Below are positions 3,536 through 56,784 of a stretch of 64,000 bases of DNA, piece by piece. Under the pieces are notes generated by a model, which was not told the origin of the DNA, ran no database searches, and saw nothing but the letters and a program-made list of their open reading frames with translations. Source of the DNA: Escherichia coli (lineage in GTDB: Bacteria > Pseudomonadota > Gammaproteobacteria > Enterobacterales > Enterobacteriaceae). Where the stretch lies: NCBI RefSeq assembly GCF_024502345.1, contig NZ_JALDNN010000001.1, one strand, 5' to 3'. The position numbers were made by a program, and so were the translations under genes. The stretch's first letter is position 1, and every line of letters starts with the position of its first letter.

Positions 3536-4132
3536 ATGCTGGAAAATTTGAATCTCTCTCTATTCTCTCTTATTAACGCGACGCCAGACTCGGCTCCGTG
3601 GATGATCTCGTTGGCGATTTTTATTGCTAAAGATTTGATTACCGTGGTGCCGCTGCTGGCCGCGGTACTTTGGTTGTGGGGGCTTACAGCACAACGGCAA
3701 CTGGTGATAAAAATCGCTATCGCGCTGGCGGTCAGCCTGTTTGTGTCCTGGACGATGGGACATCTTTTTCCGCACGACCGACCGTTTGTCGAAAATATCG
3801 GCTATAACTTCCTGCATCATGCGGCGGATGACTCATTCCCGAGCGATCACGGTACGGTGATTTTCACCTTTGCACTGGCATTTTTATGCTGGCATCGCCT
3901 GTGGTCCGGCTCACTTTTAATGGTGCTGGCCGTCGTCATTGCCTGGTCGCGCGTTTATCTTGGCGTCCACTGGCCGCTGGATATGCTCGGTGGATTGCTG
4001 GCAGGTATGATTGGCTGCCTTAGTGCCCAGATTATCTGGCAAGCGATGGGGCATAAACTCTATCAACGTCTGCAATCGTGGTATCGCTTCTGTTTTGCAT
4101 TACCGATCCGCAAAGGCTGGGTGCGTGACTGA
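3536..4132 (+). CDS. ybjG: undecaprenyl-pyrophosphate phosphatase, PAP2 family
   Basis: 198 aa from ATG 3536 (track ORF starts 15 nt upstream); PAP2 motifs PSDH and SRVYLGVHWPLD. Confidence 0.88.
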   Translation: MLENLNLSLFSLINATPDSAPWMISLAIFIAKDLITVVPLLAAVLWLWGLTAQRQLVIKIAIALAVSLFVSWTMGHLFPHDRPFVENIGYNFLHHAADDSFPSDHGTVIFTFALAFLCWHRLWSGSLLMVLAVVIAWSRVYLGVHWPLDMLGGLLAGMIGCLSAQIIWQAMGHKLYQRLQSWYRFCFALPIRKGWVRD

Positions 4133-4189
4133 TCTCTGCTAAAAAGTGTAGTATTGAGCGGCTCGCTTCAATAACTATTCAGAGGGATT

Positions 4190-4948
4190 ATGGAAACACG
4201 TCGCGAAGAGCGTATCGGGCAGCTGCTGCAAGAATTAAAACGCAGCGATAAGTTACATCTTAAAGACGCCGCCGCCCTGCTTGGGGTTTCGGAGATGACG
4301 ATTCGTCGCGATCTGAACAACCACAGTGCGCCCGTCGTTTTGCTCGGCGGCTATATTGTTCTGGAACCGCGCAGTGCCAGCCATTACCTGTTAAGCGATC
4401 AAAAATCCCGCCTGGTGGAAGAAAAACGCCGGGCGGCAAAACTGGCTGCGACACTGGTAGAACCCGATCAGACTCTCTTTTTTGACTGTGGCACCACCAC
4501 GCCGTGGATTATTGAAGCGATTGATAATGAAATCCCTTTTACCGCCGTTTGTTATTCGCTAAATACCTTTCTGGCGCTGAAAGAGAAACCCCATTGCCGC
4601 GCATTTCTGTGCGGTGGTGAATTTCACGCCAGCAACGCCATTTTCAAACCCATCGATTTTCAGCAAACGTTGAATAATTTTTGCCCGGATATCGCTTTTT
4701 ATTCCGCGGCGGGCGTGCATGTCAGTAAAGGCGCTACCTGTTTTAATCTTGAAGAGTTGCCGGTAAAACACTGGGCCATGTCGATGGCGCAAAAGCATGT
4801 GCTGGTTGTCGACCACAGTAAATTTGGCAAGGTGCGTCCGGCGCGCATGGGTGACCTGAAACGCTTTGATATTGTGGTGAGTGATTGTTGCCCGGAAGAT
4901 GAGTATGTGAAGTACGCGCAGACGCACCGTATTAAGTTGATGTATTAA
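4190..4948 (+). CDS. deoR: DeoR transcriptional repressor of the deoxyribose operon
   Basis: 252-aa ORF with N-terminal HTH and DeoR-type C-terminal sugar-phosphate binding domain. Confidence 0.93.
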   Translation: METRREERIGQLLQELKRSDKLHLKDAAALLGVSEMTIRRDLNNHSAPVVLLGGYIVLEPRSASHYLLSDQKSRLVEEKRRAAKLAATLVEPDQTLFFDCGTTTPWIIEAIDNEIPFTAVCYSLNTFLALKEKPHCRAFLCGGEFHASNAIFKPIDFQQTLNNFCPDIAFYSAAGVHVSKGATCFNLEELPVKHWAMSMAQKHVLVVDHSKFGKVRPARMGDLKRFDIVVSDCCPEDEYVKYAQTHRIKLMY

Positions 4949-4953
4949 TGACG

Positions 4954-4985
4954 TATAACCGGATGACGTTTCGCGCCATCCGGTT
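4954..4985. terminator. stem-loop between convergent deoR and dacC
   Basis: inverted repeat ataaccggat...atccggttat. Confidence 0.45.
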
Positions 4986-4994
4986 ATCAGAAGA

Positions 4995-6197
4995 TTAAGA
5001 GAACCAGCTGCCGAACCACTGATGGAATTTCATCATCACGAAATCCCACATCCGACCAAAGAATCCGCCCTCTTCCACATTTTCCATCACGATCAGCGGA
5101 CGCTGCTCAATGGATTTACCGTTAAGCTGGAAATCAATGGTCCCGACAACCTGACCTTTTTTCAGCGGTGCGGTAAGCTGCGGTTCCGTTAACGTGTAGC
5201 TCGCCTTCAGGTTTTTCAGCTGCCCACGCGGTATGGTCACTGAGCCCGCTTCGCCTGCCCCGAGATTCACTTCGCTCTTATCACCAAACCAGACGCGCTG
5301 AGTCACAAAGGTGGCATCAGGTTTAATTGGCGTCACGGTTTCAAAGAAGCGGAAACCCCAGGTCAATAATTTCTCAGACTCATTAAAACGGATACGGTCA
5401 GTTTTCGCCCCCAGCACTACGGAGATTAAACGCATATCGCCCTGGGTAGCCGAAGCAACCAGATTATATCCCGCGCCTGCCGTGGTTCCTGTCTTCATGC
5501 CATCAACATTCAGATTGCTGCTCCACAGCAGACGGTTACGGTTAGGCTGACGAATTTTGTTGAAGGTGAACTCTTTCTCTTTATGAATGGCGTACTCTTC
5601 CGGCACATCGTGGATCAATGCTTTACCCAGCAATGCCATATCGCGCGCGGTACTGAACTGCCCCGGCGCATCCAGACCGTGCACCGTCTGGAAGGTAGTG
5701 TTGGTCAGACCCAGTTTTTTGGCATAACCATTCATCAAACCAATAAATGACTCCTGGCTCCCGGCAACGTAATCGGCCAGCGCAATACAGGCGTCATTAC
5801 CGGACTGGATAATCACACCTTTGTTCAAGTCTGCCACCGAAACCTGATCGCCCGGTTTGAGGAACATTACCGATGAACCACGCAGTGCCGGATTTCCCGT
5901 CGCCCAGGCATCTTTACCGACCGTCACCATATCGGTGAGTTTAATCTTATCGGCCTTAAGCGCCTGCCCAACCACATAGCTGGTCATGATTTTAGTCAGG
6001 CTCGCGGGATCCAGTTTCTCATCCGCGTTGCCTTCTGCCAGCACTTTACCGCTGGCGTAATCCATTAAAATCCATGCACGCGCATCCACGCTCGGCGCTT
6101 CAACGGTTTGTTCCGCCGCGAATGCCGTTGGGGCAAAAAGGAATAAAAATGCAGAACCCGCTGCAAGACCACGAAGGAGAGAGGAGTATTGCGTCAT
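4995..6197 (-). CDS. dacC: D-alanyl-D-alanine carboxypeptidase PBP6
   Basis: 400 aa from ATG at 6197 (track ORF extended by 7 codons); signal peptide, SLTK active-site motif, SGN and KTG motifs. Confidence 0.93.
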
Positions 6198-23332: not shown

Positions 23333-23415
23333 AGGCCTGATAAGACGCGACAAGCGTCGCATCAGGCATTTGCTCCAGACGCCAGATGCGGCGTGAACGC
23401 CTTATCTGGCCTACG
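23333..23415. repeat. REP elements (BIME-type pair) downstream of moeB
   Basis: aggcctgataagacgcgacaagcgtcgcatcaggc and gccagatgcggcgtgaacgccttatctggcctac, typical REP palindromes. Confidence 0.8.
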
Positions 23416-30248: not shown

Positions 30249-31841
30249 TTACTCGATCCCTTTACTACGCAGGTAATCTTCGTAATTACCGCTAAAGTCG
30301 ATCACGCGTTCCGGGGTGATTTCCAGAATGCGGGTCGCCAGGGAGCTTACGAACTCACGGTCGTGTGAAACAAAGATCAGCGTGCCCTGATACAGTTCCA
30401 GCGCCATGTTCAGTGACTCGATGGATTCCATATCCAGGTGGTTGGTCGGTTCGTCCATGATCAGAATGTTCGGCTTCTGCATCATTAACTTACCAAACAG
30501 CATCCGCCCTTTTTCCCCACCGGAAAGCACTTTAGCTGGCTTTTTGATGTCGTCCTGGCTGAACAGCAAACGACCGAGAATGCTGCGTACCGCCTGCTCG
30601 TCATCGCCTTCCTGCTTCCACTGACTCATCCATTCGAACACGGTCAGATCATTTTCAAACTCATATTCGTGGTCCTGGGCGTAGTAACCAATGCGCGCGT
30701 TTTCAGACCATTTTACGGTGCCGCTGTCCGGTTGCAGATCGCCCACCAGCGTTTTCAGCAGCGTTGATTTACCGACGCCGTTGGTACCCAGTACCGCAAG
30801 TTTTTCACCGACCTCCAGCAGCAGGTTGAGATTTTTAAACAGTGGACCGTTATCAAACCCTTTGGTCAGACCTTCCACTTCCAGCGCGTTACGGAACAGT
30901 TTCTTATCCTGTTCAAAACGGATGAACGGGTTCTGACGGCTGGAGGCTTTCACCTCTTCCAGTTTGATTTTATCAATCTGGCGCGCGCGCGAAGTTGCCT
31001 GGCGAGATTTCGAGGCGTTGGCGCTAAAGCGGCTAACGAAAGATTGCAACTCAGCAATCTGCGCTTTCTTCTTGGCGTTATCGGCCAGCAGACGTTCACG
31101 CGCCTGGGTCGCCGCCGTCATGTACTCATCGTAGTTACCCGGATAAACGCGCAGCTCGCCGTAATCCAGATCCGCCATGTGGGTACAGACCATGTTAAGG
31201 AAGTGACGGTCGTGCGAGATGATGATCATGGTGCTGTCACGCTCGTTCAGCACCTGTTCCAGCCAGCGAATGGTGTCGATGTCGAGGTTGTTGGTCGGTT
31301 CGTCGAGCAGGAGAATATCCGGATCAGCAAACAGCGCCTGCGCCAGAAGCACACGCAGCTTCCAGCCAGGAGCAACTTCACTCATCGGGCCGTAGTGCTG
31401 TTCCACTGGAATTCCCACGCCAAGCAACAATTCACCGGCGCGAGCTTCCGCAGAGTAACCGTCCATTTCGCCGTATTTAACTTCCAGATCGGCCACTTTA
31501 TAGCCGTCTTCCTCACTCATTTCCGGCAAAGCATAGATGCGGTCACGCTCCTGCTTCACTTCCCACAACTCTTTATGCCCCATGATCACCGTATCCAGCA
31601 CAGTGAACTCTTCAAAGGCAAACTGATCCTGACGCAGCTTACCAATGCGCTCGTTGGGATCGAGGGAAACGTTACCCAAAGTCGGCTCTAAGTCGCCGCC
31701 GAGGATCTTCATAAAGGTGGATTTACCACTACCGTTCGCGCCAATCAGGCCGTAACGGTTGCCGCCGCCAAATTTGACGGAAATGTTTTCAAACAACGGC
31801 TTACTGCCGAACTGCATGGTGACGTTACTGGAAACTAACAC
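30249..31841 (-). CDS. ybiT: ABC-F family ATPase YbiT (two ABC domains, no membrane domain)
   Basis: 530-aa ORF with two Walker A motifs and two ABC signature motifs. Confidence 0.92.
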
Positions 31842-32059
31842 AGGCGTATCCTGAAAAGAGATATGACAAACCGCGCATTATGCCATAAGTCTGAAAGAAG
31901 ATCCTGCTCCTCGCTTAAGGTCTACACTCAAGCCAAAGGCAAAAAATGTGATTTCGTACACATCTGATTTCACTGTGAGCTGGAATGAACTTATAATGCG
32001 CTTCCAATACTCTAATATTCTCAACCCAATGGCCTGCCAGGCACAAAATCTCGCTTAAC

Positions 32060-49997: not shown

Positions 49998-50120
49998 GTA
50001 GGACGGATAAGGCGTTTACGCCGCATCCGGCAACAGATGCCTGATGCGACGCTACCGCGTCTTATCAGGCCTACAAAATCCGAACCGTTGGACGGATCAG
50101 GCGTTTACGCTACGTCCAGC
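49998..50120. repeat. REP element cluster (three REP-like palindromes) downstream of ybiJ
   Basis: gtaggacggataaggcgtttacgccgcatccggc, gcctgatgcgacgctaccgcgtcttatcaggcctac, ggacggatcaggcgtttacgctacgtcc. Confidence 0.8.
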
Positions 50121-50224: not shown

Positions 50225-51439
<1,215 letters not shown>

Positions 51440-51445
51440 AAAGAA

Positions 51446-52408
<963 letters not shown>

Positions 52409-52435
52409 TTACGACTCCTTACCTGACTCACATCA

Positions 52436-54586
52436 TTAACGCCGCCGACGGCGTGGGGATTTCGTTTTTTCTTTCTTTTTAACTATACCTTCAGGGACTT
52501 CCGGTTGCTCTATCGGAAATACCGGTAATGCATCCAGTAGTCGCTTGCCATAATTTTTGGTCAGCAAGCGTTTGTCGTAGATAACCACTTCGCCCCAGCA
52601 ACCGTGGCTTCGAATCAGTCGCCCAACCTGCTGAATCAGGTTAAACGAGGCGCTCGGCAGGCTTTGCACCTCAAACGGATAGCGGTTGAGGCTTTTCAGC
52701 CATTCCCCTTCGGTGATCACCACCGGGCTGTCGATGGGCGGAAAAGCGATTTTGTGGATATGCACCTGGCTGAGCAGATCACCTTTCAAATCAAGCCCTT
52801 CGGCAAATGACTGTAAGCCCACCAGCACACTACGCTCACCGTTGGCAACGCGTTTGCGGTGCAGTTCAACTAAGCGATAACGCGGCTGATCGCCCTGCAC
52901 CAGCAGCATCAGGCGTAAATCCGTCACATAGTCGAGAAAGCGCTGCATCGCCCGTCCGCTGGCAAACAGTACCAACATACCGAGATGTTTTTTGCTCTCC
53001 ACCTGCTTACGGAAAAAGGCCGCCATTTCGGCAATATGCTGCTCTTCGTTGTCGATGGAAGGCTCAACGCGCATCCGGGGAATAACAATTTTGCCCTGTT
53101 CGCAGTGGTTAAAGGGGGAATCCAGCGCCACAAAACGGTCGCCCGCTTTCTCTTTCAGACCACTCATCTCCTGCAAACGCGAAAAACTATTCAGCGAACG
53201 CAAGGTTGCGGAGGTAACAATAATGTGCGGAATACTGCGCCACAGCAGCCTTTCCAGCTGATCGCTGACACGTATCCCCACGCAGTGAAACCAGAGATGC
53301 AGCTGCCCTTCGCGCTCTTCCCGCGTCGCCCATTTGGTCACCGGCGCACCGGAAGATTGCGCCAGAGACGCCAGCCGCCAGAGTTTGCTTTGCGCCTCGA
53401 ACATCCCCAACGCGCGGTTCATCTGCAAAATCAACCGATGCAGACGCACAATATCGTGGCTGCCGGTTTTCTCACTTAAATCGTTAAGAAATAACTCCGC
53501 CAGACCACGCAGCATCTCGGTGAGTTTTGCCAGCCGCTGGCAGATCTCCAGCACTTCATCAGGCAGTTCGCCCATCGCAAAACGGTGCTCTGCCTCCTGC
53601 CCGGCAGGCATGTAGAGATTGAGAATGTTGTTTAACGAGGCGATAAGCTCATACAACTCTTCACAATGCGCATTCAAACGTTCAGGGATCGCCAGCGGTG
53701 GGATGGTCTTCGGGCGAAACTGCTCCATGCAGGTAGCGACCAGTTTCGTGAACAAGTCCAGCTGTAGTCGATACCAGGGCGCGGTGATTTCGGCACTCAT
53801 CTCCAGCGCATCCCGGGCCACATCTGGCAGGTGATGACCTTCGTCCAGCACCAGCAGCAGATTTTTCGGGTCAGGTAGTACGGCTTCGCTTTCCATCGCC
53901 GCCATCACCAGCGCATGGTTTGCCACCACCACTTCCGCTTCCTGAATCTCCCGACGAGCAACAAAAAACGGGCATTCACGATAGTAGTAACAGTTGCGGT
54001 TGAGGCAGCTGGCTTTGTCGGTACTTAAACGACGCCAGAGATCGTCATCTATAGCGATATCAGTATGATCGCGCAGACCATCCCATTTATAAGTGTCGAG
54101 ATCGCCCTTCAGCTTCGCACAACGTTTTTGCTCTTCCTGATTATTTGGCGTCAGTTCGTCGTCAAGAAACGCCAGCAGATCCTGTTGCGTGGGCTCAGTG
54201 CTGGCGAGCGCCGTCAGATTACGCGGGCAAACGTAGCGCCCACGCCCAAAAGCGGCAGTGAATTTAAGATCGGGAATGATCTTTTTCAGCAGCGGTAAAT
54301 CTTTGCTGTAAATCTGATCCTGCAACGCCACGTTGGCGGTACTCACCACCAGCGTTTTTTGCTCTTCGCGGGCAATGGCGATGCCGGGGATCAAATAGGA
54401 GAGCGTTTTCCCAACACCGGTGGGGGCTTCAATCGCCAGATGCCGCCCTTCTTCTCCGGCCAGCGTTTTGGCGACGTCCGCAATCATCTGCCGCTGCGGC
54501 GCACGGGGAATAAAGTCGGGGATCTGTTCCTGAAGCGCCTTATACCAGGCGGCAATTTGCGCTTTAAGCGCGGCGGTTAATGCCAT
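52436..54586 (-). CDS. dinG: ATP-dependent DNA helicase DinG (Fe-S, superfamily 2)
   Basis: 716 aa from ATG at 54586 (track ORF extended by 45 codons); Walker A APTGVGKT, DEGH box, Cys cluster. Confidence 0.93.
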   Translation of the reverse strand: MALTAALKAQIAAWYKALQEQIPDFIPRAPQRQMIADVAKTLAGEEGRHLAIEAPTGVGKTLSYLIPGIAIAREEQKTLVVSTANVALQDQIYSKDLPLLKKIIPDLKFTAAFGRGRYVCPRNLTALASTEPTQQDLLAFLDDELTPNNQEEQKRCAKLKGDLDTYKWDGLRDHTDIAIDDDLWRRLSTDKASCLNRNCYYYRECPFFVARREIQEAEVVVANHALVMAAMESEAVLPDPKNLLLVLDEGHHLPDVARDALEMSAEITAPWYRLQLDLFTKLVATCMEQFRPKTIPPLAIPERLNAHCEELYELIASLNNILNLYMPAGQEAEHRFAMGELPDEVLEICQRLAKLTEMLRGLAELFLNDLSEKTGSHDIVRLHRLILQMNRALGMFEAQSKLWRLASLAQSSGAPVTKWATREEREGQLHLWFHCVGIRVSDQLERLLWRSIPHIIVTSATLRSLNSFSRLQEMSGLKEKAGDRFVALDSPFNHCEQGKIVIPRMRVEPSIDNEEQHIAEMAAFFRKQVESKKHLGMLVLFASGRAMQRFLDYVTDLRLMLLVQGDQPRYRLVELHRKRVANGERSVLVGLQSFAEGLDLKGDLLSQVHIHKIAFPPIDSPVVITEGEWLKSLNRYPFEVQSLPSASFNLIQQVGRLIRSHGCWGEVVIYDKRLLTKNYGKRLLDALPVFPIEQPEVPEGIVKKKEKTKSPRRRRR

Positions 54587-54598
54587 GAGAAAACCTGA

Positions 54599-54618
54599 AA
54601 TACTGTATAAACAGCCAA
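54599..54618. promoter_or_regulatory. LexA (SOS) box upstream of dinG, non-canonical left half
   Basis: minus-strand TATTGGCTGTTTATACAGTA compared with consensus TACTGT-N8-ACAGTA. Confidence 0.6.
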
Positions 54619-54705
54619 TATTGTGGCATTTTTCGGTTTTCAGGGGTAATGGTTTTTCTGTTTCTGGAAAGCGGCTCGCAATAACCACCAACATAATGCG
54701 GTTTA

Positions 54706-55188
54706 ATGCCCGTTCGAGCACAAAGGATCCAACACGTCATGCAAGACACCATCATAAATTTCTACAGCACCAGCGATGACTACGGTGATTTTTCTAACTT
54801 TGCCGCCTGGCCCATCAAGGTTGACGGGAAAACCTGGCCCACCTCAGAACACTATTTTCAGGCACAAAAATTCCTTGATGAAAAATACCGCGAAGAGATC
54901 CGTCGGGTTTCTTCCCCTATGGTCGCCGCACGCATGGGGCGCGATCGTTCTAAGCCTCTGCGTAAAAACTGGGAGTCGGTCAAAGAACAGGTGATGCGAA
55001 AAGCACTTCGCGCTAAATTCGAACAGCATCCAGAACTGCGTGCGCTCTTGCTGGCAACCGCGCCCGCAAAACTGGTTGAGCATACGGAAAACGATGCTTA
55101 CTGGGGAGACGGTGGTAATGGTAAGGGCAAGAATCGACTGGGCTACCTTTTAATGGAGTTGCGCGAACAATTGGCTATAGAGAAGTAA
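54706..55188 (+). CDS. ybiA: N-glycosidase YbiA (DUF1768)
   Basis: 160-aa ORF. Confidence 0.85.
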   Translation: MPVRAQRIQHVMQDTIINFYSTSDDYGDFSNFAAWPIKVDGKTWPTSEHYFQAQKFLDEKYREEIRRVSSPMVAARMGRDRSKPLRKNWESVKEQVMRKALRAKFEQHPELRALLLATAPAKLVEHTENDAYWGDGGNGKGKNRLGYLLMELREQLAIEK

Positions 55189-55239
55189 CGTCTCGGTGGC
55201 TTATGGGCGGTAAAACAGATAAATTTTTTCCCGTGTTCT

Positions 55240-55390
<151 letters not shown>

Positions 55391-55419: not shown

Positions 55420-56784
55420 TTACTGCGCAGCGGTAGGTTTACGCGGACGGCGGCGACGTTGTTGTTCGCCTGCCGGTTTGGCATCGCCGAGGCGGCGAGA
55501 CGGTTTTTCTGCAGGTTTCGCGCTTGCAGATTTTGCGCCACCTTCCCCACGGCGTGGTTGCTGTTGACCGCGACCACCACCTTGCCCACGACCGCCGCCG
55601 CCACGTTGCTGGCGACCGTTCTGGATCGGTTCGGCTTTGATTGACGGGTCCGGCTCATAGCCCGGAATCGCAATGCGCGGGATCTCTTTTTTCAGCAGTT
55701 TTTCGATATCACGCAGCAGTTTGTGTTCATCAACACACACCAGCGACAACGCTTCACCGGTAGCAGCCGCACGACCGGTACGCCCGATACGGTGGACATA
55801 ATCTTCAGGTACGTTTGGCAGTTCATAGTTGACGACGTGCGGCAGCTCTTCAATATCCAGGCCGCGCGCAGCGATGTCAGTTGCCACCAGTACACGAATA
55901 TCGCCCGATTTAAAATCAGCCAGCGCACGAGTACGCGCACCTTGCGATTTATTGCCGTGGATCGCCGCACTACGGATGCCATCTTTATTGAGCTGTTCAG
56001 CCAGATGGTTAGCGCCGTGTTTGGTACGGGTAAACACCAGCACCTGCTGCCAGTTCCCTTTCCCAATCATGTGCGACAGCAATTCGCGTTTGCGTTTCTT
56101 ATCGACAAAGTGAACGTGCTGGGTCACCTGATCAGACGCGGTATTGCGGCGTGCCACTTCGATTTCCAGCGGGTTGTGCAACAGTTTTTCCGCCAGGGCT
56201 TTAATATCATCAGAGAAGGTCGCGGAGAATAACAGGTTCTGGCGCTTCGCAGGTAGTTTTGTTAACACGCGACGGATATCGTGGATAAAGCCCATGTCGA
56301 GCATGCGGTCAGCTTCATCGAGGACGAGGATTTCAACCTGATCCAGCTTCACTGCATTTTGATGTTCCAGGTCCAGCAAACGTCCCGGCGTTGCCACCAG
56401 CACATCAACGCCGCCGCGCAACTTCATCATTTGTGGGTTAATGCTGACACCGCCAAACACCACCAGCGAACGAATGTTCAGGTATTTGCTGTAATCACGG
56501 ACGTTTTCGCCAATCTGTGCCGCCAGTTCACGGGTCGGGGTAAGAATGAGCGCACGTACCGGACGACGCCCTTTGGCGTGCGGCTGGCGAGTGATCAGGT
56601 GTTGCAACAGCGGCAGCGTAAAGCCCGCTGTTTTGCCGGTGCCGGTCTGGGCGCTAGCCATCAGGTCGCGGCCTTCCAGCACCGCAGGGATCGCCTGCTG
56701 CTGAATAGGGGTGGGTTCACGGTAACCCTGCTCGGCAACGGCGCGCAGGATATCAGGGCTTAAACCCAAAGAATCGAAAGACAT
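55420..56784 (-). CDS. rhlE: ATP-dependent DEAD-box RNA helicase RhlE
   Basis: 454-aa ORF; Q motif, Walker [13 protein letters not shown] box, basic RG-rich C-terminal tail. Confidence 0.94.

Follow-up and report, generated by a model that had tools for sequence, protein, structure and literature searches.

The site TATTGGCTGTTTATACAGTA, a 20-mer located 14 nt upstream of the dinG start codon (ATG at 54586), is very probably the SOS operator of the E. coli dinG-ybiB operon. It occurred as a single copy in the window, that is, the whole 64-kb stretch of E. coli chromosome analysed in this study, and shuffles of the window yielded none. For the site, the sequence, score, and conservation were computed here, as were the layout of the genes, the absence of an internal terminator, and the terminal hairpin. 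LexA binding, damage induction, and co-transcription were taken from the literature, the first and the last of these by second-hand citation. All of the following has been published already (1992-2015): the dinG box, its asymmetry, LexA control, and the transcription of ybiB together with dinG. The positions of the features are collected in Table 1.

Table 1. Positions of the dinG operator, the predicted promoter elements, and the two genes in the window.
Feature	Position	Strand	Basis
LexA (SOS) box of dinG, TATTGGCTGTTTATACAGTA	54601-54620	minus	exact match, matrix score, conservation, literature
Predicted extended -10 element TGcCACAAT (last T is box position 1)	54620-54628	minus	phylogenetic footprint
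Predicted weak -35-like hexamer TTACCC, 18 nt 5' of the -10-like element	54644-54649	minus	only the leading TT conserved (65/81 and 79/81)
Shine-Dalgarno-like AGG, 7 nt before the dinG ATG	54594-54596	minus	sequence; CAGG kept in most species
dinG CDS, 716 aa + stop, XPD/Rad3-type ATP-dependent DNA helicase	52436-54586	minus	ORF list; RefSeq annotation of a 99.8% identical region
dinG-ybiB spacer, 27 nt, with the ybiB ribosome-binding site AAGGAG (52420-52415)	52409-52435	minus	sequence
ybiB CDS, 320 aa + stop, TrpD2-family DNA-binding protein	51446-52408	minus	RefSeq annotation
Terminator-like hairpin AGCCGGAUGA-gccaug-UCAUCCGGCU followed by UUUUA, 11 nt past the ybiB stop	51407-51435	minus	folding

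The dinG box and the consensus TACTGTATATATATACAGTA agreed at 15 of 20 positions, and the mismatches were located at positions 3 (C>T), 6 (T>G), 7, 9, and 11. Positions 15-20 of the box read ACAGTA, which is a perfect right half with the CAG trimer. The left half reads TATTGG and carries the trimer TTG, not CTG, and T4 and G5 alone are retained of its core. The spacer GCTGTTTATA is A/T at 7 of 10 positions, and its left end, GCTG, is G+C-rich. The canonical gammaproteobacterial SOS box is TACTG(TA)5CAGTA, that is, CTG-N10-CAG. A search of the window for the CTG-N10-CAG pattern gave 21 matches against 12 expected; the dinG box was not among them, and none of the 21 had an A+T-rich spacer at a promoter. 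Because TTG stands in the place of CTG and the pattern search misses the site, the dinG box is not canonical, and the literature files it as "non-canonical" or "asymmetric". The first-pass annotation had described an off-consensus LexA box at dinG, with TTGG replacing CTGT beside a perfect ACAGTA, and the sequence bears this description out. The interval given there, 54586-54618, begins at the first base of the dinG ATG, ends at box position 3, and so omits the two outermost box bases, 54619-54620.

A symmetric LexA matrix was built from 17 other E. coli SOS boxes (PMC3009722, Table 4), with dinG omitted. The dinG box was the highest-scoring site of the 64-kb window (14.5 bits), and this score lies within the range of the proven SOS boxes used for training (13.6-28.6 bits). 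Approximately 0.16 sites with a score at least as high are expected per random 64 kb. A chance match within the 119-bp dinG/ybiA intergenic region is therefore unlikely (about 3e-4 by simple proportion). The approximate heterology index computed for the dinG box was 9.3, and it was 12.8 when dinG was left out. The box also contains an inner palindrome, CTGT-N4-ACAG (box positions 7-18), which was considered as another LexA register or as the site of a second regulator. The LexA spacing in E. coli is CTGT-N8-ACAG; the inner palindrome has the wrong spacing, and it was rejected as unsupported.

The conservation of the box was determined in a footprint alignment of 81 sequences, in which 80 other Enterobacteriaceae species were sampled and Salmonella was not represented. 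In each of the 80 species, 13-16 nt separated the dinG box from the ATG. Box positions 4-19 were identical in at least 79 of the 81 sequences, and the ACAGT of the right half was identical in all of them. Position 3 was the sole freely varying base inside the box (G in 76 sequences, T in 4, and A in 1). The genera other than Escherichia, leaving aside the unsampled Salmonella, had G instead of T at this position, and C was never found there in the 80 species or in 5413 E. coli genomes. Within E. coli, 5379 of 5421 genomes matched the 91-bp region at 99% identity or more. The sequence farther upstream of the box region could not be aligned across species. The retention of a degenerate half-site across the Enterobacteriaceae argues that a weak operator is maintained and is not decaying. 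This family-wide conservation of the off-consensus left half is a small addition of this analysis. In a homologue search with the DinG protein, the best 120 matches were all at least 87% identical, and there were no more distant orthologues (e.g., from Yersinia or Vibrio) among the matches listed. A metagenome scan for the consensus-restored variant ACTGGCTGTTTATACAGT returned 24 matches as a raw count, none of which adjoined a dinG, ybiB, or ybiA homologue.

Published data place the dinG operator among the weaker ones. The heterology index published for it, 8.6-8.65, puts it in the weaker half of the classical SOS boxes, and the site is an experimentally characterised LexA operator according to the literature that cites the original work. 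AZT induced dinG 3.2-fold, and the lexA (lexA3) dependence of this induction was small (1.7-fold). After ciprofloxacin treatment, dinG RNA and DinG protein both increased (log2 of approximately 1-1.7), and a tiling-array study showed that UV also induces dinG. The first-pass annotation had suggested weaker LexA repression at dinG, and both the heterology index and the modest induction (approximately 3-fold) agree with that suggestion. We attribute the middling to weak affinity of the operator and the modest induction ratio to the poor left half-site. The dinG gene of Salmonella enterica has one box 14 nt from the ATG, a heterology index of 10.08, and 10.6-fold induction by nalidixic acid. The 14-nt spacing in Salmonella agrees with the range found here in the 80 species. 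In a published Salmonella dinG::gfp fusion, fluorescence was undetectable.

The two genes controlled by the proposed operator were identified with protein family models. DinG scored 1054 bits against the NCBIfam equivalog NF008729 (cut-off 598) and 326 bits against the model of its paralogue YoaA, which is under the cut-off of 680. The Pfam domains Helicase_C_2, DEAD_2, DEAD, and ResIII were found on DinG. YbiB scored 500 bits against the NCBIfam equivalog NF006005, "DNA-binding protein YbiB" (cut-off 185), and 53.8 bits against TIGR01245 (trpD), far under the cut-off of 199. Among the Pfam models, Glycos_trans_3N was above its cut-off on YbiB and Glycos_transf_3 was below. DNA binding by YbiB is described in the literature.

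The spacer between dinG and ybiB had no significant fold (z = -0.73 compared with shuffles), and no terminator was called in it. The hairpin after ybiB had a minimum free energy of -18.3 kcal/mol (z = -5.06, about -5.1), and none of 200 shuffles folded as well. The simple terminator scan missed this hairpin because only four U follow it. The UV tiling-array study reported one up-regulated transcript touching "ybiB, dinG", with the dinG box upstream; the supplements of the UV study mention neither ybiA nor ybiB. Schneider et al. 2015 (J Biol Chem 290:19527), the paper that defined the TrpD2 family, is cited as describing dinG-ybiB as an operon that LexA controls and DNA damage induces; the pair, the gene order, the strand, and the LexA claim are the same as here. 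The first-pass annotation had placed ybiB after dinG on the same strand, with a terminator only after ybiB, and had proposed that the two genes are co-induced. The unstructured spacer and the hairpin with its U-run confirm the first statement, and the published operon and the single UV transcript support the second, with which the gene layout agrees.

ybiB was found directly 3' of dinG in 63 of the 80 Enterobacteriaceae species, and the median spacer was 29 nt (62 species measured). In the other 17 species, the box was kept without ybiB downstream. This indicates that control of dinG is the primary role of the operator, and ybiB is perhaps only carried along. These adjacency counts are all that is added here to the work of Schneider et al. 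2015.

The simple sigma-70 scan of 51000-55300 called no promoter at dinG. Folding and the phylogenetic footprint were used in place of the simple promoter and terminator scan, and conservation alone was used to place the putative -10 element, -35 element, and start site of dinG. In the footprint of the -10-like element, TG was present in 81 of 81 sequences and was followed by one variable base and then by C (79), A (81), C (77), A (81), A (81), and T (81). The consensus for an extended -10 element, for comparison, is TGnTATAAT. The TT bases of the -35-like hexamer are provided in many genera by the T-run of an upstream terminator. The first base of the box is also the last of the -10-like element, and the operator therefore probably covers the end of the -10 element, the discriminator, and the start site. 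That the box adjoins a conserved extended -10-like element is the second small addition of this analysis.

Taken together with the literature, the following mechanism is proposed. In undamaged cells, a LexA dimer would occupy 54601-54620 on the minus strand, with one monomer on the perfect ACAGTA half-site and the other on the degenerate TATTGG. The box would then extend over the discriminator, the predicted start (approximately 54614-54611), and roughly the first 12 bases of the transcript. LexA bound there would block RNA polymerase, and the predicted position of the promoter suggests that it does so by occlusion. After DNA damage, RecA would be activated, LexA would cleave itself, and the promoter would fire. 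A single mRNA would probably carry dinG and, 27 nt on, ybiB with its own strong ribosome-binding site, and transcription would stop at the hairpin 3' of ybiB.

Instead of having decayed, the off-consensus left half may be constrained by the promoter that it overlaps, and we put this forward tentatively, as a possibility that we consider doubtful on balance. Box position 3 is the discriminator base two positions 3' of the predicted -10 element. At this discriminator position, Haugen and colleagues reportedly found in 2006 that G is the best base and C the worst for the contact with sigma region 1.2. If the promoter does hold this half-site, repair of TTG to CTG would tighten LexA binding and weaken a promoter that is already poor at -35. 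Such a constraint would also account for the variability at position 3 alone for the absence of C from the 80 species and the 5413 E. coli genomes, and for the lack of any dinG-linked C variant in the metagenome scan. The data fit such a constraint but do not distinguish it from simple drift at a base that LexA no longer reads, and position 3 has changed independently only about two or three times.

The box could also be shared with the divergent gene ybiA, which encodes a NADAR N-glycosidase, and repress both genes as a bidirectional SOS pair. The ybiA ATG (54706) is only 85 nt from the edge of the box, a weak -35-like TTGTGG (54621-54626) adjoins the box with GGTAAT 18 nt beyond, and PMC11125620 places ybiA, dinG, rhlE, and ybiB in one LexA-controlled operon. 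However, ybiA lies on the opposite strand and therefore cannot belong to the dinG transcript, and the main text of the UV and AZT studies does not mention it among the induced genes. A ybiA-like sequence was located 5' of dinG in only 2 of the 80 species, both of them Escherichia, whereas the box was present in all 80, which shows that the box did not evolve for ybiA. We consider joint repression of ybiA unlikely.

It is less likely still that ybiB is expressed mainly from a promoter of its own within the 3' end of dinG, perhaps under a separate LexA site (52520-52539), so that its SOS behaviour would be independent of the dinG operator. In favour of an internal promoter, ybiB has the strong ribosome-binding site AAGGAG of its own, and in the part of the ciprofloxacin proteome supplement examined, the YbiB protein did not change significantly at the time points covered. 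Moreover, TACTGGATGCATTACCGGTA, which ranks second in the window on the LexA matrix (12.9-13.0 bits), lies in dinG approximately 112 nt 5' of the ybiB ATG. This score, however, is about that of the top chance match in 64 kb of random sequence (mean maximum, 12.1 bits), and TACTGGATGCATTACCGGTA has CGG where CAG is required. The site erodes at its synonymous positions outside Escherichia, and the scores of most species are under 6 bits or negative. Because of the chance-level score and the lack of conservation at synonymous positions, 52520-52539 was rejected as a ybiB operator. A separate ybiB promoter also fits poorly with the one UV-induced transcript that spans both genes and with the single LexA-controlled operon reported in the literature, as cited. 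ybiB may nevertheless have a constitutive internal promoter in addition to that of the operon.

The conserved block might instead be essentially a promoter (extended -10 element, discriminator, and start site) and 5' leader, with an incidental likeness to a LexA box and a small role of LexA in dinG. LexA sites normally leave spacer positions 6-14 free to vary, and here the footprint continues without a gap from the TG to the end of the box, these positions included; the lexA dependence of dinG after AZT was just 1.7-fold, and on the bare matrix score a site of 14.5 bits is expected approximately 0.16 times per random 64 kb. We give this explanation the least credence of all, because the invariant ACAGT lies 3' of the predicted start, where promoters need no such sequence, the site is described in the citing literature as an experimentally characterised LexA operator, and UV, AZT, ciprofloxacin, and nalidixic acid all induce dinG in independent studies.

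As the operator of dinG and ybiB, the site is the "asymmetric dinG operator" of E. coli K-12 (Lewis, Jenkins & Mount 1992; Lewis & Mount 1992, J Bacteriol 174:5110): the 20-mer, its place, and the TTG for CTG are identical. The sequence of the box is printed verbatim in PMC8265657 and PMC3009722. The site is already in the standard lists of SOS boxes, and our result has little weight as a discovery. It has value as a calibration: a genuine operator, overlooked by a plain CTG-N10-CAG search, was correctly recognised from the raw sequence. Lewis and Mount are said to have characterised the dinG operator in 1992 by binding and mutational experiments, and both a LexA footprint over 54601-54620 and constitutive dinG expression upon mutation of ACAG have reportedly been obtained.

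The arrangement of one box at the promoter of the first gene, with a second gene that lacks a box and is induced by read-through, is also found in lexA-dinF, recA-recX, umuDC, and ruvAB. Read-through induction is stated explicitly for dinF and recX in a review (PMC6590174). Unlike the dinG box, the boxes of these four operons carry the canonical CTG...CAG. The YbiB literature suggests "genomic hitchhiking" as a possible reason for the presence of YbiB in the SOS response. That ybiB is under the dinG operator in the majority of species, though not in every one, is relevant to the question of whether YbiB plays a genuine role in the SOS response or is a "hitchhiker", and the weak operator retained across the family may reflect a trade-off between promoter and operator.

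The sequence TATTGGCTGTTTATACAGTA occurs once as an exact match in the window, 14 nt 5' of the dinG ATG. Of its 20 positions, 15 agree with the LexA consensus TACTGTATATATATACAGTA. The right half-site follows the consensus throughout, and in the left one TTGG replaces the expected CTGT. This bears out the first-pass annotation, which had described a non-canonical box of exactly this composition at dinG. The interval it gave (54586-54618) covers most of the box; it begins at the ATG and clips the two outermost bases. A symmetric LexA weight matrix was trained on 17 other SOS boxes (Table 4 of PMC3009722), with dinG left out. The dinG box was the top site of the entire 64-kb window (14.5 bits). 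The training sites themselves score 13.6-28.6 bits, and the dinG box falls within their range, near its lower end. About 0.16 sites with at least this score are expected by chance per random 64 kb, and the score on its own is only suggestive. Because the site also lies in a 119-bp intergenic region right before the gene of a DNA-repair helicase, a chance explanation is unlikely.

The off-consensus, matrix-positive site directly before dinG is conserved. The dinG loci of 80 other Enterobacteriaceae species were compared, giving 81 sequences with this window. The LexA matrix picked out the orthologous box as the highest-scoring site 5' of dinG in all 80 species, with 13-16 nt between box and ATG. 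At least 79 of the 81 sequences agreed over box positions 4-19; at position 20, 70 had A and 11 had G. Position 3, the C of the consensus CTG, was G in 76, T in 4 and A in 1, and C occurred in none of the 81. The four T carriers are all Escherichia, including this window, and the A carrier is E. whittamii. Farther than approximately 35 nt 5' of the box, no alignment was possible. Among E. coli genomes, 5379 of 5421 carried the 91-bp promoter/operator stretch at an identity of at least 99%. A query with C at position 3 matched no E. coli genome, and its best full-length alignment reached 98.3%. A metagenome collection, scanned for the C variant only, gave 24 contigs, with none adjoining a dinG homologue. 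In these environmental contigs (L082-L105), the consensus-restored 18-mer ACTGGCTGTTTATACAGT is a canonical-looking LexA box unrelated to dinG. In about 10 contigs, the reverse complement of a gene start (…AGAGGA…ATGGCTGT…) is found some 25-35 nt away from this box, suggestive of a common SOS-regulated gene of other Gammaproteobacteria.

The window is from the E. coli chromosome. Of 5426 complete E. coli genomes, 5421 have a match to the region 51300-54800, with an identity of 95-100%. The genes of this region are ybiA, dinG, ybiB and hcxB in the RefSeq annotation. The dinG product scored 1054 bits against the curated DinG equivalog model (cut-off 598). The ybiB product scored 500 bits against the YbiB equivalog model (cut-off 185) and far under the cut-off of the TrpD proper model. 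The dinG frame is open further upstream to a GTG, and this longer frame crosses the operator and promoter. A cluster of 761-aa proteins has 11,659 member sequences, and the over-long start is thus common among automatic gene calls. RefSeq and the conservation pattern support the ATG at 54586 as the start. Three Rfam matches exceeded the gathering score; naRNA4/CssrE is a repeat-derived nucleoid-associated RNA. No tRNA genes were found within the 64-kb window.

Features of the dinG region and other sites in the window
Feature	Position	Strand	Remarks
dinG	54586..52436	minus	716 aa; ORF and RefSeq
dinG frame from GTG 54721	52436-54721	minus	761-aa ORF
ybiB	52408..51446	minus	320 aa; ORF and RefSeq
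ybiA	54706..55188	plus	divergent from dinG; NADAR domain
rhlE	55420-56784	minus	beyond ybiA
ybiT	30249..31841	minus	ABC-F ATPase gene
LexA box at dinG	54601-54620	minus	TATTGGCTGTTTATACAGTA
Predicted dinG transcription start	54614-54611		approximate
Second-best matrix site	52520-52539	minus	TACTGGATGCATTACCGGTA; within dinG 3' end
Third-best matrix site	31826-31845		GCCTGTGTTAGTTTCCAGTA
naRNA4/CssrE	23334-23411	minus	Rfam
naRNA4/CssrE	50001-50071	plus	Rfam
ES036/CssrF	55304-55346	plus	Rfam; between ybiA and rhlE

The first-pass annotation had also placed dinG and ybiB on one strand with a terminator only after ybiB, and this arrangement was found. The two reading frames are separated by 27 nt. 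This spacer folds no better than its shuffles (z = -0.73) and carries AAGGAG 6 nt before the ybiB ATG. A hairpin (10 bp, G+C-rich, 6-nt loop, followed by UUUUA; -18.3 kcal/mol, z = -5.1) begins 11 nt after the ybiB stop. In 63 of the 80 species, ybiB comes directly after dinG in the same orientation, with a median gap of 29 nt (62 loci; the sixty-third, truncated, shows only the ybiB start). The remaining 17 species, from the Enterobacter cloacae complex, the Citrobacter amalonaticus/sedlakii group and Pseudenterobacter, keep the box intact and have a different, apparently convergent reading frame immediately after dinG (loci L008, L009, L016, L040, L044, L049, L050, L052, L054, L056, L057, L063, L065, L066, L072, L078 and L079). 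The dinG-ybiB spacer grows to 75-111 nt in three loci from Kluyvera and a related isolate (L007, L013, L015), where it contains inserted REP-like palindromic elements (GCCTGATAAGCG…CATCAGGC). In the complete genome of Kluyvera genomosp. 3 YDC799 (L077), the dinG frame (about 4001-6134) is broken early on by a stop codon or a frameshift; either dinG is a pseudogene there or the sequence contains an error.

The divergent ybiA may also be controlled by the dinG box in E. coli. However, a ybiA-like gene adjoins dinG in only 2 of the 80 other species, so ybiA cannot account for the existence of the box. ybiA, dinG, rhlE and ybiB have been described as one LexA-controlled operon (PMC11125620). This cannot literally be one transcript, as the divergent ybiA cannot be co-transcribed with dinG. 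An internal ybiB operator at TACTGGATGCATTACCGGTA was considered and rejected. This site (about 13 bits, chance level) precedes the ybiB start by approximately 112 nt and has CGG in place of the needed CAG. It is not conserved outside Escherichia and is therefore probably a coincidental match within the coding region. The third-best site, which extends over the initial codons of ybiT, is a true CTG-N10-CAG. Its score of 12.0 bits is at the level of the best chance match in a random window.

A conserved promoter-like element runs across the left edge of the dinG box. Immediately 5' of the box, the 81 sequences share an invariant TG, one variable base and CACAAT (C79, A81, C77, A81, A81, T81), whose final T is box position 1. 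The extended -10 promoter pattern is TGnTATAAT. TG-n-CACAAT retains its usual invariants (TG, A at the second position, T at the sixth) and is probably an extended -10-like element. Conservation at the weak -35 is limited to TT, and a simple promoter scan made no call here. In many genera, the terminator of the upstream gene stops about 30 nt before the box, so the dinG promoter must sit in the short interval between. The box would then span approximately -7 to +13, and the predicted leader of about 26 nt would carry an AGG ribosome-binding site. A purely promoter origin of the conserved block fails, since the perfect ACAGTA falls 3' of the predicted start and LexA binding is reported in the literature.

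Earlier work already covers the dinG site, including its asymmetry and function, and the dinG-ybiB operon. The 1992 work on the dinG operator (Lewis and Mount; Lewis et al.) reportedly includes gel-shift and operator-mutant experiments. The gene dinG figures in the standard table of known SOS-box genes. Its published heterology index is 8.6-8.65. AZT raised dinG 3.2-fold, with a 1.7-fold dependence on LexA cleavage; after ciprofloxacin the change was log2 ~1-1.7, and the DinG protein increased later. The published Salmonella dinG box likewise lies 14 nt from the ATG (index 10.08; 10.6-fold induction by nalidixic acid). In a UV tiling-array study, "ybiB, dinG" are the genes touched by a single up-regulated transcript, and this motif lies upstream of it. 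The literature reports that LexA binds the dinG site and that dinG and ybiB are damage-induced under LexA on one transcript, in line with the co-induction suggested earlier. The LexA binding and ybiB induction experiments proposed with it appear to be contained in substance in the 1992 papers and the 2015 work of Schneider et al. A paper citing the latter considers "genomic hitchhiking" of YbiB in the SOS response possible. The literature surveyed, to which the primary 1992 and 2015 papers did not belong, did not mention the family-wide fixation of the degenerate half-site or its overlap with an extended -10-like element.

This fixation and overlap tentatively raise a promoter–operator trade-off at box position 3, which we consider rather doubtful. 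In the main model, LexA would repress dinG by covering the stretch from the -10 end through the discriminator to the start site. A weak operator and a modest induction ratio would follow from the poor left half-site. ybiB would be induced by read-through from dinG and translated from its own ribosome-binding site.
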